Source: Podarcis bocagei | Taxonomy: Eukaryota | Assembly: GCA_964188305.1 (NCBI GenBank) | Contig: OZ076894.1 | DNA length: 64,000 nucleotides | Direction: 5' to 3' (one strand) | Part shown: in pieces, positions 58,101-64,000 of the stretch | Numbering within the stretch: position 1 is the first letter of the stretch | Layout: every line of letters starts with the position of its first letter | Position numbers: made by a program

Positions 58101-61100
58101 AGCTGATGGCTTTTCTTGATGCAAACATTTCTGCACTTCAGTCTTTGTTTAGCTCTATCTGAAAAGTTCAGTGGGCCCTTGGTACTGTCTCCTTGCTTCT
58201 GTTTTTCCTTACATTGCAGCAAGGCCTGGCACATAAATGTGCTGTTACACAAAGTGCTCAACCCTGCTACACTAACGAGGTTGCTTTGGATCAGAACTAC
58301 TTTCTGAAATACTTCTAAAATGTTTTTTTTAGGAAACCTGAGCCAATCCCACAATTCTGGAATTGTCTGTCTTCTTGTGCGTGCTCACTTTCTCTACACA
58401 CTTAAAAAATGACCATTTTACTTACTAAGCTAGAAGGATCCCAACTTAGCACTTTTGGAATGAATGGGAAAGTGAAGCTACCAAACCCATGGAACTGGGT
58501 TCCATGTAATCCCCATCAGCTTCTCAAAACAAGGCGGGAATATGACTTGGAATTGCTATTTTTGGTAGCTACTACAGCAGATGTATTTTCTGTTTTGTAA
58601 ACAAAACATGTTTTTACTATGTTTTATATGTACTGTAAGCTGCCCAGAGTGGTTGGGGAAACCCAGCCAGATTGGCGGGGTATAAATATCAAAATTATTG
58701 TTATTATTATAATTATATTCCTGTGTGCACGCACAAAATAGCAACCACTAATTCCAGGAATAAATTCTATTCTAGGGTATTCTGCTCCTTAGCAGAATTT
58801 TGACATGCTCTCATTTCTTTTTTCTTCCCCCCCCCTCTTTTTTTTGCAATTTGGCAGGAAGTAAGCCCTTTTAGGCTACTGGAGCACACTAGATCCCTTG
58901 TGTTACTTACTATGAGCCTAATTTGAATCTGACTAGGTTTGCATGTAACACGAAGCGAAACCATGGCTTAGCAAAAGCAATATGCCATATGAGTTGTTGG
59001 GAGTAAAGATTATGACAGCAGCACTCTTTCCCCCAGTCCTGCTGCTCTCATGCTACCCAGGACTAAACTGGCGTTGAATCCAAACCTGGGTTTATGGTTT
59101 GTCTTGCTCTGCATAATCTATGAGCTTATAGCCAATGTATATTCTTGGTTTATTGCTTATGGTTTGTTTGGGGTAAGCAAACCGCAAACCCTGGTTCACG
59201 TGCAACACTAGGCCAAACCATGGTTTAGCTCTGGTTTCAGCTGCAGCAATACTGGGGAGGAGAGCTGTGACCATGATCTTCACTCCAGAAACCCACAAGT
59301 TTGCTCATTCTTGGTAAGCATAAATTGGCTTAGTGTTAGATGTGAATTGGGACTGTGTAACTTCGCTAAAATCAGTATTGTCCACAGGTAACAAAAAGCT
59401 TTGTGGGAGAAAATGAGCACTATAAAGACCCTTTTAATGACAAGAGTCAAAATTTTCTGTTTTTAAGTTGGACTTGAGCTTCATTCTTACTTATTAATGT
59501 CAAAGTACTTTCTGTCTTTCCATAAATAATAACGAAGCTTTCTGGCAAGATCAAAGAGATGCAAGAAAAGGACTTGGAGCAAGAGAAGCTTCTTGGTATG
59601 AGAGAACAACTTGATGAAGCACATCAAAAATTGAGTGAAATGGAGCAACTCAAAGACCAGTTGAAGACCTGGGCATCTAAAATGGAGGCTGAGGAAATGG
59701 AGAAGCTGGGCCTAGCTCAAAGGCTCCAAGAGAGTGAAGAAGAGTTGCAGGCGCTGACTCGGGAAAGAGATGACCTGAAGCAGAAGGAGGAGGCTCTCAG
59801 GCATGAGAGAGATCAGATCAAAGAAGATATCCAAGAGACTGTGTCAATGGTAAGCAAAACCTCCCACTTGGATTACCGCAATGATGCTGCATTTGAAAAT
59901 CGTTCAGACCCTTCAGGACTTCATTATATGATCATATCACACCAGTGCTTCTCCATATCAAAGTTCTGGTTTTAGCCTTTAAAAGCTGTAATTAATTTGA
60001 GGTGGGATGGAACATACTTATAAATGAGCACACATGAAACTCGCATGGAACCAAAGTTTTCAATGTTTGATATTGTATTCTGCTTTTATATGTGTTGGAA
60101 GCCTTCCAGAGTGGCTGGAGCAACCCAGTCAGATGAGCAGAGTATACATAAAATTATTATTATTATTATTATTATTTATTTATGTGGCTAATTCATCTGT
60201 CCATACATCAAACTAGAGAGCTTTGAAAAGGGTAGCAGAACAATTCATAGCACTACTGCAAGGAAGTGTATGTCATGGGAATTCTAATGCATGTATCTCT
60301 TTTGTTTTGCTTTTAATGTAAAAGAACATTGAATCACAAGAAGAACTGAGAAGTGCGCAAAATTCTCTGAAGCATTGTGAGAAGCAAATTAAAGAACTGG
60401 AAGAAGCCATTGTGGAGAGAGAATCACAGATTTCAAGTGTTAAAGAATCTCTAGGGGTCACTATTGAAGAACAGAAGCAACAGGTAACATCTGTCTCAGT
60501 TGCAAAGTTTATTGGTCTAGGTTGGAGCAAAATTAGGAGCATAAGAAATGCCCTGTATAATCTTGATCCTTAGTCCATGTAGCTCATTATTGTCTTTGCT
60601 GACTGGAAGTGGCTCTCCAGGTTTTGGGACAGAGGAAATTCTCAGCCCTCTCTACAAATGCTGGGGATTAAATCTGGGACCTTCTGAGTGCAACACAAGT
60701 GTTCTCTCGCTGAGCTGTGGCCCTTTTTGCTTTGTGAATGTTTTGGGTTCAGTTCCGAGACAAGCCCCATTTAAGGCAACACCACTTGTTTTCTATGGTG
60801 ACTATCTAAAGCTTAAAGAACTTTAGCTGGTCTGTAACATGTTAAGACATCAGAGGCTGTTAAACACTGCTAGAAAGTCTGGGATGTTGTAGAATAATTG
60901 TTGAAATGGTGCTATATTGGGACTTCCGGGTTGACGCGATCTGGAAATGGCGGATTCCCTCCGAGCTGCGGAGGGAATCGGCTCTACCGAGGACGGGTCT
61001 TTGCCGCGCCGGCGACGCGGGGACCCTTAAAAACCGCAGGCGCGGATGCCTGCGGACTGAAGACTCGGCGGGTGCCTTAAGCGCCCCCCCTGATCCACGA

Positions 61101-64000
61101 AGAGCCTTTTTAAAGGCTGCGGAGAGGATACGGGGGGTGGCGTGGCACTGAGAGTCGATCGCTACCTCGGTGGAGCGAAGCCGCGAGCCATGACCAGAGA
61201 GCGCTGACTTCCTTCCTTGAAAATTTGGACTGAAAGAATCACCCGTGAGTAAGACGGATTGGGACTTTAAAAAATTTACCCTGAATTGGAGACGACCGGG
61301 GGGTGTGCTAAAAGGAAGTCCGCACCCCCCCCCCTTGCAGAAGATCTAAGCAACGACATAAGAGCTAAGCTGGAGAGCCTACCCTTGGTGGGGTGAGTTA
61401 AAAAGGACATTAACTTTCAAGATTTGGCTAAAGGAAATTTTGGGCTGGAGAGTGGAGTTTTAGAAACCTTCTTTTTGTTTTAAACAACCCCCCCTCCCGG
61501 GCTCGGGAAAGTCCTGCCTGTGTGCCTGTGTAAGAGCTGCGGAGTTTGACAGCTGTCAAAGCTGTCAATCGGGCGGTTTAAAGTGGAAAAATCGCTATTT
61601 AAGATCCCTCTGGACTAAGACGAGTTATAATTGAGCTAAAATTGTTGGAAACAAAGTAATAACAATTTGTTAAAGGACTGTTGGAGAAAAGACTAATAAG
61701 TAACCAGATTCCCTCTAGGGGGAATTCTGTGAAACTACAATGGATACAATGGCTGTGGAAGGAAAGTTGCTAGTGGAAATCGAAAGGATGTTTCAATTGG
61801 TGGGAACCTTACAAGAGCAGAGCTTGGCCATGAATAAACAACTTGTGACTATGACCTTGGGAACAGGCAACTCTGCTCTCTGTATTGAGGACCTGAATGA
61901 GAAAGAATCCACAGCTGAATGGGAAACAATATCTACAGAGGTGGAAGAGACTAAACAACAAGAAAAAGAAGAAGCAACCTTGGGAAGTAACAACCAAAAG
62001 CTGACATCTGTGGAACACAAGCAAGGAGACGCTGGGAACCTATCTACCACAAGTCTGCGAAAGACACAGAAGAAGAAGGAGGAGGTCCCGGGGCAATATG
62101 GAATACAGGAACTTAAAAGAAAGAAATATCACTGGGGCCTCCGTTTGGACTCTGACTCTGAAGATACAGGCTTTGTGGAAATTTTTCAGCAGTTATTTTC
62201 AAATCTCCTTGTGGGAAGAGAATACACTTTGATGGTGAAAGAACTTTTTCCAGACTCGAAGACTGACATTAAGGACTACCAACAAGACAGGCGGAGAGGG
62301 ACTGAAATTGACTTGAAAGCCTCGGACGTGAGGAACCCAGGCTGAGAATCTCGAATTTGGACTTCTATTGGGAAGGGACAAAAACCGGGGATGGGAGGGA
62401 GGGAAGAGGAGATTCTTAAAAACTCTTAAGACTTTTAGGTTTGGTTAATATGACTCTTAATTAAGACAAAATGAAAATCGATGGAAGAGAACTTAAGTCC
62501 AACTTAGGAAAATTAATTTTTATTATAAAAGAGGTAATAAGATGAATAAGATGGTTAAGAGGAGAAACACCAACTTGCTGATATAATCTTGGGAACAGGG
62601 ACGCAAGAGGAGGGGGTGGGGGGAAGTCTGGAAACAAGGTTACGAAATGGGGATTTGCTGATTTTATACATGTTTTTGTTTTGTGTCTTTTCTTTGTGTG
62701 TGTTTTGTTTTTATAAAAGCAGAAAACCAAATAAATTTTTTTTTTAAAAAAAAAAAGAAATGGTGCTATATTGGGTGGAGGCACGAAAGTGCAGACTTCC
62801 ATGTATATCTTAACTCCAGCATCAGAGGCACCAATTTTCTGAATGCTGTTTGCTGGAGAATAATGCCCTCATACCCTGCTCTGCAGAGGCATCTGGTTGG
62901 CGGCTACGGGAAAAGAGGATTCTGGACTCAAGATGCCTCTTGGCCTGATTCAGCAGGGCTGTTCTAGCACTGCCCTCTTCTTCTTGCCAAACTTCTCTGA
63001 ATGTTCTGCACTGGATTGTTGATCACTGTTTGTTCACCTGCCTTGCATGAAACATTTTCTAGGGTAGAAAAAAAAATGTTGTGTTTCATCTTGCAGATAC
63101 TAAAGTTAACAGAGCACTTGGACTGCTTCGACACAGAGAAAAATATGTTAACGGGAGGAGACGGGGATGCAGAGGAAATCAAGCTGGAGGAAAATAACCA
63201 GCTTCAGTCAATGAAGGAAAAAATCTTGTCCCTTGAGCAAGAGAAGACTTTGCTAAAGCAACAACTGGAGAGTCTGCAAGAGCAAAAGAACTGGTACCTG
63301 GAAAGCAGTCAGCTGGTAATTGTTGTGTATTGCTTGTTGTGGGCATCAGTCTGTCCTGAGAGGCAATGGAGTACGCCTCCAGGGGGGGTGAAGTCAAATC
63401 ACACTGTTAACAGCACAGAAGTGACCTCCCTAGGAGCAAGCCTGGGCAGTGTGTATGGAGCTCCTGGGTTGCCCAGAAGACAAGACTCCCCCCCCCCCAC
63501 TCTTGACCTCACTGATGTAGTCCAAAGAGAAGCAGAGCAATACGTTTAGCACCAACATGGCAGCAGGAGTTGCCAGAAGGAGGCGTGCAAGGCACTATCC
63601 AGCCATCTTAGGGACTCCACTCCAGATTTTTGTAGGGTTTACTCCTTATCCTTTTCTTCTCCCAAAGATATTCCGCAAGGCAGTTGTGTATTACAGGGGT
63701 ACACCTGTATTTGTGTATTACTGGTTGGCATTTTAGTGTCGTGTCAAGCCATAACCCAAGGTTTACTGTGCACAAACAAACTGGAGATTGGAAACAAACC
63801 ACAAACAAACCATGATTGGTACACCATAAACAAACCTTGGTTTATCGTCATGGTTTGTTTCCCCTTACCCCAGCACTAGCAGAGAGGAGCAAAGAAGACA
63901 TAATTTGCTCATCTACAGTAAGTCATGATTACAGTGATGTGCACAGATGGTCAGACACAAGTTGGAGTCTGTCTTTGAGAGAAACTGATAAATTAAGTTA

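Follow-up and report, generated by a model that had tools for sequence, protein, structure and literature searches.

A candidate LINE-1-mobilised retroposon encoding a conserved orphan protein in a CENPE intron of the lizard Podarcis bocagei

Introduction

Protein-coding, non-autonomous passengers of LINE-1 (long interspersed nuclear element 1, L1) are known mainly as the HAL1 elements of mammals, whose protein is ORF1p. HAL1 elements lack ORF2 and hence a reverse transcriptase (RT), depend on L1 and carry one open reading frame (ORF) between L1-like untranslated regions (UTRs), together with a poly(A) tail and target site duplications (TSDs). HeT-A of Drosophila, a non-LTR (LTR, long terminal repeat) element, similarly lacks RT, keeps an ORF and depends on the RT of another element, but it is specific to telomeres, belongs to the Jockey clade, has another promoter arrangement and encodes a recognisable Gag-like protein. 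Here we describe an insert with an architecture of the HAL1 kind in a 64,000-nucleotide stretch of the genome of the lizard Podarcis bocagei (assembly GCA_964188305.1, contig OZ076894.1; the whole stretch is referred to as the window). The insert is RT-less and intronless, forms a single unit of 1,835 bp, contains one ORF of 201 amino acids and lies in sense orientation in an intron of CENPE, and it looks more like a protein-coding LINE-1 parasite than an ordinary dead gene copy.

Other sequences mobilised by L1 differ from the insert in instructive ways. SVA and LAVA give rise to kilobase-sized polyadenylated RNAs of the RNA polymerase II type, which are mobilised by L1 in trans (PMC3287187, PMC5174737, in the sections of these papers drawn on here). 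They are hominoid, non-coding composites of short interspersed nuclear element (SINE), variable number tandem repeat and LTR sequence, whereas the insert encodes a conserved protein. Processed retrogenes and retropseudogenes are, like the insert, intronless polyadenylated copies with a TSD at an L1-type site; here, in contrast, the relatives are deeply diverged yet open and are dispersed in another species, and the unit carries L1 terminal motifs. The L1 elements of lizards themselves form many divergent, concurrently active families of low copy number (Boissinot & Sookdeo, 2016, PMC5381506; this and later statements from that source concern the portions of it used here), with 75 and 144 copies given for two Anolis families in the corresponding portions of a further study (PMC3787681). 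Members of their clade 1 (Anolis L1_AC) are about 6.4 kb long and have an ORF2, while the insert is 1.8 kb long, lacks ORF2 and has an ORF for which no relationship to ORF1 is detectable.

Results

Structure and insertion site of the unit

The unit occupies positions 60922–62756 on the + strand and, with its poly(A), lies between two copies of a 19-bp direct repeat (GAAATGGTGCTATATTGGG; 60903–60921 and 62757–62775, both +) that are 100% identical. The 5' copy is preceded by TT, and the duplication cannot be extended, the preceding base being t at the 5' copy and a at the 3' copy. The target site, TT|GAAA, reads TTTC/AA on the bottom strand and is thus one mismatch away from TTTT/AA, the preference of the L1 endonuclease, and a TSD of 19 bp fits the longer range of mammalian L1. 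At the 3' end, AATAAA (62730–62735, +) is followed by T10 (62736–62745, +) and by a tail of A11 (62746–62756, +), so that the poly(A) after AATAAA, the perfect TSD and the TTTT/AA-like nick site together give the insert the hallmarks of an L1-mobilised sequence. Purines prevail on its sense strand (A 31.6% and G 27.0%, against T 23.4% and C 18.0%). The first-pass annotation of this DNA had described an RT-less unit with L1-type insertion hallmarks, namely a perfect 19-bp TSD at TT|GAAA, an AATAAA with T10 and an A-tail, a CpG-rich 5' end with a leader of about 0.8 kb, an intact ORF at 61740–62345 and a G-rich 3' UTR, and all of these were found again.

A Pfam search of the ORF, and of 10 out of 23 further forward frames with a length of 30 amino acids or more, detected no ORF2 endonuclease or RT domain, and an autonomous LINE-1, with an ORF2 containing APE endonuclease and RT domains, was ruled out on this ground. 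A search of 60500–63200 against Rfam gave two matches only, which score 24.1 and 22.5 where the gathering scores are 80 and 60, so that no transfer RNA, 7SL, 5S or small nuclear RNA head of a SINE or small-RNA-derived retroposon was recognised. A repeat scan saw no repeat array inside the element. There are no N bases in the window, and neither blastn nor tblastn, the latter with the 17 proteins of the family described below, found a second copy of the element within its 64 kb.

An L1-type motif pair at the 5' end

The insert starts with (G)ACTTCCGGGTT...ATGGCG, and its first 31 nt (60922–60952, +) form the composite ACTTCCGG-N17-ATGGCG, in which both terminal motifs of Anolis L1 clade 1 appear in the same order. 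The 5' extremity of that clade is described as 'remarkably conserved', with the consensus GACTTCCGGTGN8ATGGCG, the 5' end of zebrafish L1 is given as GGACTTCCGGTT, and a box containing ATGGC is, in mammals, a YY1 site critical for initiation (PMC5381506). Here and at the 3' end the comparison with lizard L1 is one of motifs and dimensions with the printed consensus rather than an alignment to L1 sequences. The composite is matched once in the 64-kb window and in none of 100 shuffles. This motif pair was not part of the first-pass annotation and, as read from the sequence, is a new finding; it strengthens the interpretation of the unit as a non-autonomous element that derives from L1 or mimics it. 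The ATGGCG box is followed immediately on its 3' side by a perfect stem of 11 bp closed by a loop of 5 nt (GATTCCCTCCG / CGGAGGGAATC; 60953–60979, +).

Taken by itself, ACTTCCGG occurs at four sites in the window against 0.81 expected, an excess explained by the location of the sites in repeats. The other three, at 28056–28063 (+), 42587–42594 (-) and 17935–17942 (-), are inside SINE-like repeats and were for that reason rejected as L1-like termini. The sites at 28056–28063 and 42587–42594 have flanking sequence in common (...CCAAGGTAC.ACTGTAT) and seem to represent the same SINE-like repeat in two copies.

The 5' end is embedded in a CpG-island-like region (60922–61220, +; GC 0.63–0.65), in the first ~300 bp of which the observed/expected ratio of CpG is 1.0–1.17, compared with 0.36 for the whole window. 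More than half of the CpGs of the element (33 of 60) fall within 60927–61202, and a weak second cluster is seen at 61498–61621, about 300 nt after the first. The CpG-rich 5' end presumably acts as an internal promoter. The complete leader (60922–61748, +) measures 827 nt up to the second ATG of the ORF, or 818 nt up to the first, with a GC content of 0.51 and 46 CpGs. For the Anolis clade 1 elements, 5' UTRs of 792–1,465 nt with a mean of 56 CpGs and a GC content of 45% are reported, holding two CpG islands 300–400 bp apart (PMC5381506). The leader of the insert, and its 3' UTR of 411 nt, are in or near the ranges of the lizard clade, so that the likeness to clade 1 takes in the ACTTCCGG and ATGGCG motifs and a long, CpG-containing 5' UTR.

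The leader is poor in start codons. Only three ATGs precede the ORF, all of them before 61193 and opening upstream ORFs of 27, 4 and 5 codons, where 9.5 would be expected; three or fewer were reached by 11 of 5,000 shuffles. The last 547 nt (61193–61739) contain none against 6.4–6.5 expected, a result reached by 0 of 5,000 shuffles in one series and 2 of 2,000 in another. No other of the 64 trinucleotides is as strongly depleted in this segment as ATG, and the complementary CAT occurs about as often as expected. A depletion confined to the sense strand supports translation of the ORF, and the leader would appear to be under selection against ATG.

Also in the leader, and in the sense of CENPE, are donor-like sites (GTGAGT) at 61245–61253 and 61392–61400 and acceptor-like sites (a pyrimidine run followed by AG) at 61325–61342 and 61709–61719, read from the sequence pattern and not by a scoring model. 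These could give rise to a spliced element RNA or to exonisation into CENPE transcripts.

The ORF and its orphan protein family

The ORF (61740–62345, +; stop TGA at 62343–62345) is open for 201 codons, though the start conserved in the family is the second ATG, at 61749, which gives a protein of 198 residues. A search with the single sequence returned six relatives among 95 candidates. A profile search of 1.84 billion representative proteins of any length found 10 proteins at E ≤ 0.001, all of 129–215 residues, and one of 5.8 billion proteins found 11 relatives among 2,086 candidates. Altogether, the family comprises 17 distinct relatives of 129–215 residues that are 19–71% identical to the window ORF. 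The alignment used below (A2) has 15 rows, with the partial P0010 and P0017 and the later-found P0016 left out.

The stop column is common to 14 of the 15 aligned members, down to 23% identity, and 14 of 15 have methionine in the conserved start column corresponding to the ATG at 61749. Residues 4–45 and 169–201 are more conserved than the remainder, a difference reached in none of 10,000 column permutations. In a neutral simulation allowing substitutions only, the ORF stayed intact in 6–8 of 2,000 runs at 59–65% amino acid identity and in 0–1 of 2,000 at 31–53% (0 of 2,000 at 53%). Intact copies as diverged as these point to selection for the reading frame, and the comparison of sequences thus argues that the ORF is not a chance frame but is kept by selection. 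The first-pass annotation had proposed a novel or fast-evolving protein, and the ORF proves to belong to a family of about 200 residues without known relatives, in which start and stop are shared and the frame is kept at deep divergence.

Three members (P0006, P0008 and P0009) begin 12 residues earlier, with MAIPLG.. or MEIPLE... The 9-mer GATTCCCTC, which follows the 5'-terminal ATGGCG (60947–60961), recurs just upstream of the ORF (61706–61724), a repetition that chance would be expected to produce in 1.8 kb, and the additional residues are encoded by this second GATTCCCTC site. The MAIPLG.. extension might have arisen where the 5'-terminal ATGGCG became joined to the ORF via GATTCCCTC.

In layout the protein has a long N-terminal helix, an acidic middle predicted with low confidence, a small basic patch and the conserved C-terminal motif. 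It is acidic, with a pI of about 5 (4.5–7.7 in 14 of 15 members) and a patch of charge +6 at residues 101–130.

No relationship to ORF1p is detected

The earlier suggestion that LKRKKYHWGLRL... faintly recalls the ORF1p junction between the coiled coil and the RNA-recognition motif (RRM) found no statistical support. None of the 15 members matches the L1 ORF1 families of Pfam at E ≤ 10. The window ORF matches nothing in Pfam (best E 0.14), and the 15 members together hit 17 unrelated families, each with one member only and at E ≥ 0.031. Profile searches of the PDB returned neither an ORF1p chain nor any relative (best E about 1 and 0.37). Among the 10 profile matches from 1.84 billion proteins, none is an L1 protein, whether ORF1p or ORF2p, or exceeds 215 residues. 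Searches of the Protein Atlas, both unrestricted and limited to named proteins, had best scores of 0.84–0.85, with none at or above 0.9.

AlphaFold2 (AF2) models had a mean pLDDT (predicted local distance difference test) of 47.1 with 7 sequences and 49.9 with 15. One helix, residues 3–46, is predicted confidently (pLDDT 84–93), values elsewhere are below 50, and the models have no strands and therefore no RRM-like fold. Foldseek gave no match to the AF2 model at E ≤ 0.001 and four in all, each at E ≥ 6.6, a result that carries little meaning because only helix 3–46 is confident. A homo-oligomer prediction for three copies of residues 1–50, made without controls, scored 0.07 against a mark of 0.32, a value that speaks neither for nor against an oligomer of the coiled-coil kind. 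An identification of the ORF as ORF1p was rejected on the Pfam, PDB profile and family profile searches and the strandless models; the comparison with L1 ORF1p (Transposase_22) suggested at first pass thus yielded no match by profile and no strands by fold.

The 3' UTR

The 3' UTR (62346–62756, +) is 411 nt long and contains a canonical motif of the G-quadruplex type (62387–62403, +), a second G-run (about 62607–62625, +) and a T/G-rich tract (about 62672–62714, +) ahead of the AATAAA. The 3' UTRs of lizard L1 elements are described as 194–570 nt long, with T-rich or C-rich tracts and AATAAA plus poly(A) (PMC5381506). The insert agrees with this description in being of a few hundred nucleotides and in the succession of a T-rich tract, AATAAA and poly(A). 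Within the portions of the same source used here, a G-rich 3' tract is noted in two Anolis families only, L1AC_17 and L1AC_20, and it is only these that the G-rich tract of the insert resembles. The first ~54 nt of the 3' UTR, including the G-tract, are homologous through an in-frame read-through to the frameshifted tail of P0010, a relative from Podarcis lilfordi, so the homology of the family reaches beyond the ORF.

Paralogous members within Podarcis

Only two proteins of the family are named, P0004 and P0010, each as 'Hypothetical predicted protein [Podarcis lilfordi]', and they lie on different chromosomes, on contigs of 137 Mb and 89.6 Mb. The two have a near-identical core and differ at both ends, 79 of 103 aligned positions being identical overall. 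Each is 54–56% identical to the window ORF. For CENP-E, in contrast, the exon at 59538–59849 has 94% identity to the P. lilfordi protein (P. muralis 99%, P. raffonei 98%, Lacerta agilis 97%), which makes the P. lilfordi members paralogues and not orthologues of the window copy. By these exon values the window is lacertid and not human, with P. muralis the nearest of the named species. No RefSeq-style named member was found from P. muralis, P. raffonei or L. agilis, whose proteins are in the searched database. In the tree, which contains several well-supported subclades, 8 of 15 inner branches are strongly supported; the window copy is joined to P0001 and P0002 (100/99), and the P. lilfordi group is their neighbour. 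Judged from these sequences, deep paralogous lineages coexist within one genus, and in this the orphan protein family resembles the many divergent low-copy families of lizard L1.

The host gene and the remainder of the window

Positions from about 34855 onwards carry CENPE, on the + strand. Its exons were mapped by aligning the named P. muralis CENP-E protein (P0018) to the window, one exon being searched singly. The insert is flanked by an upstream exon at 60325–60498 (+; tblastn, residues 989–1046) and a downstream exon at 63094–63315 (+; tblastn, residues 1041–1114, 98.6% identity), and makes up about 71% of the intron of ~2.6 kb. Intron 1, between the exons at 34855–34911 and 40695–40796, contains two adjoining GC-rich tandem arrays (38177–40246), the first with an 89-bp unit in 18.2 copies (95% matches) and the second with a 90-bp unit in 5.9 copies (97% matches), as a result of which both strands carry long open frames that are spurious.

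CENPE is preceded, in the same orientation, by an exon of a radial-spoke-head gene (26716–27504, +; Pfam Radial_spoke, E 6.5e-118). An open frame rich in proline and glutamine at 23915–24601 (+), which has no Pfam match, may be the first exon of this gene. An open frame at 35837–36664 (-) is one that we take to resemble a C-terminal fragment of a CR1-type RT. Three further frames, at 2047–2559 (-), 3798–4235 (-) and 31597–32097 (+), are related to one another by the shared '...LFVTPWT...LLSSTAS...' and are presumably akin to repeats of the Bov-B/SINE type. Two of these four repeat-like frames were tested against Pfam and gave no match.

Discussion

The insert in CENPE is, in our estimation, probably a member of a non-autonomous, L1-mobilised retroposon family that combines an L1-type promoter end with a selected orphan protein, HAL1-like in architecture without being HAL1. 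This family of poly(A) retroposons would, rather likely, be small, old and split into several lineages, and would belong to lacertid, and possibly other, lizards, the insert being one of its copies. The 5'-terminal motif pair, the insertion hallmarks, the ATG-poor leader and the family of diverged yet intact ORFs carry this interpretation. A number of observations weigh against it. The A-tail is short, at 11 nt. The two boxes are 17 nt apart in the insert and 10 in the Anolis consensus, and the likeness of the 5' ends is at the level of motifs only (8–9 nt plus 6 nt), with Anolis being an iguanian and not a lacertid. Boxes of the ACTTCCGG type (ETS-like) and of the ATGGCG type (YY1-like) are common at the CpG-island start sites of host genes. 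Seventeen relatives among billions of proteins fit a low-copy family and a small gene family equally. An acidic protein whose fold is mostly of low confidence is unlike a basic nucleic-acid chaperone. As the protein sets hold open frames only, the argument for selection rests on the divergence among intact copies. Finally, TSDs of L1 are given as short, less than 10 bp (PMC5381506), from which the 19 bp seen here differ.

An alternative, named at first pass, is a retrocopy of an unknown gene. On this explanation a lizard-specific gene or small gene family would be transcribed from a CpG-island promoter with ETS-like and YY1-like boxes, its protein would have a function in the host, and the copy in the CENPE intron would be a by-product of L1-mediated processing of the parent mRNA. 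A TSD, poly(A) and the lack of introns are what a retrocopy should have. The gene-like conservation of the protein, a leader as poor in ATG as that of a translated host mRNA, the small number of relatives, an acidic protein unlike ORF1p and start-site motifs shared with host promoters also fit. Against it, the matches include no RefSeq model named from P. muralis, P. raffonei or L. agilis, although the database covers these proteomes, and the P. lilfordi members, at 54–56% identity where CENP-E has 94%, are not orthologues but two loci on different chromosomes, one of them with broken ends. Moreover, the two terminal motifs of lizard L1 stand precisely at the start of the unit, and the CpG content of its 5' end is undecayed. 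The retrocopy is therefore weakened and we regard it as unlikely, while being the strongest of the competing explanations.

A host gene domesticated from a former retroposon or retrocopy, expressed for example in the germline, with the present copy a young retrogene in CENPE that uses the promoter it carries, would account for the strong conservation of both protein termini, the undecayed CpG island and the intact ORF with its good start context, but the dispersed, non-orthologous and partly broken copies in P. lilfordi look like ongoing turnover and not like a fixed gene, and we think this explanation very improbable. Slighter still is the chance of a one-off, internally deleted L1 made up of a 5' UTR, an ORF1 stump and a 3' UTR, in which ORF2 has been lost and the ORF is a functionless remnant: the L1-type 5' motifs, the UTR lengths within lizard L1 ranges and a long N-terminal helix as in the ORF1p coiled coil would suit it, yet the frame of about 200 residues recurs together with its stop in 14 of the 15 relatives aligned, at identities as low as 23%, the family profile finds no ORF1p or ORF2p among 1.84 billion proteins, no member matches the Pfam L1 families and no L1 domain appears in the 10 of 23 other forward frames searched.

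Returning to an L1-mobilised retroposon family as the favoured interpretation, the first-pass description of the unit as HAL1-like stands for its architecture and falls for its protein. Like HAL1, the unit lacks ORF2 and RT, would depend on L1, and has one ORF between apparently L1-like UTRs, poly(A) and TSDs, and its UTRs match the Anolis clade 1 description, in the portions used here, in the terminal motif pair and gross dimensions only. HAL1 encodes ORF1p, whereas the ORF of the insert is acidic, has neither an RRM and C-terminal domain of the Transposase_22 type nor predicted strands, and is found in a lizard. Since an ORF coding for ORF1p defines HAL1, the element is not filed there. No literature title dealt with a HAL1 or ORF1-only element in lizards, a statement about titles with entries in Repbase and Dfam outside its scope.

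A mechanism may be proposed on this basis. RNA polymerase II would transcribe the unit from its own first base, the promoter (ACTTCCGG...ATGGCG in a CpG island) being within the transcript. Ribosomes would then scan the ATG-poor leader of 0.8 kb and translate a protein of ~198 residues, and the RNA would be polyadenylated at its own AATAAA. The endonuclease and RT of a resident autonomous L1 would copy this RNA in trans by target-primed reverse transcription, which would leave the A-tail and a 19-bp duplication at the TTTC/AA-like nick; in lizards, poly(A) use and TSDs of this sort are characteristics of the L1 clade among LINEs. The weakest step is the role of the protein, which would act on the RNA or ribonucleoprotein (RNP) of the element itself to gain access to L1 ORF2p, functionally replacing ORF1p. 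A role of the protein in mobility is accordingly offered as a tentative idea, to which we give well below an even chance, and a host function or interference with L1 are the alternatives. Doubtful, too, is the general proposal of a lineage of RT-less, protein-coding LINE-1 parasites in lizards which have kept an L1-type promoter end and replaced ORF1p by an unrelated acidic protein, helical in part and otherwise disordered, whose conserved termini would be required either for hijacking L1 ORF2p or for interference with the RNP of L1.

For the annotation of lizard genomes, ORFs of this kind are apt to be listed as 'hypothetical predicted proteins' in gene sets. For the host, in which CENPE is an essential gene for a mitotic kinesin, the consequences of a sense-oriented unit with a strong polyadenylation signal of its own could include premature termination or exonisation. 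The association of L1 terminal promoter motifs with a different, selected protein raises the question of whether there are functional substitutes for the coating of RNA by ORF1p acting in cis, and also of how the low-copy, multi-lineage L1 communities of reptiles become parasitised. If the proposal of such parasites is true, the protein would represent a retrotransposon 'gag substitute' of a new kind, and the family would serve as a natural experiment that bears on what ORF1p is required for.

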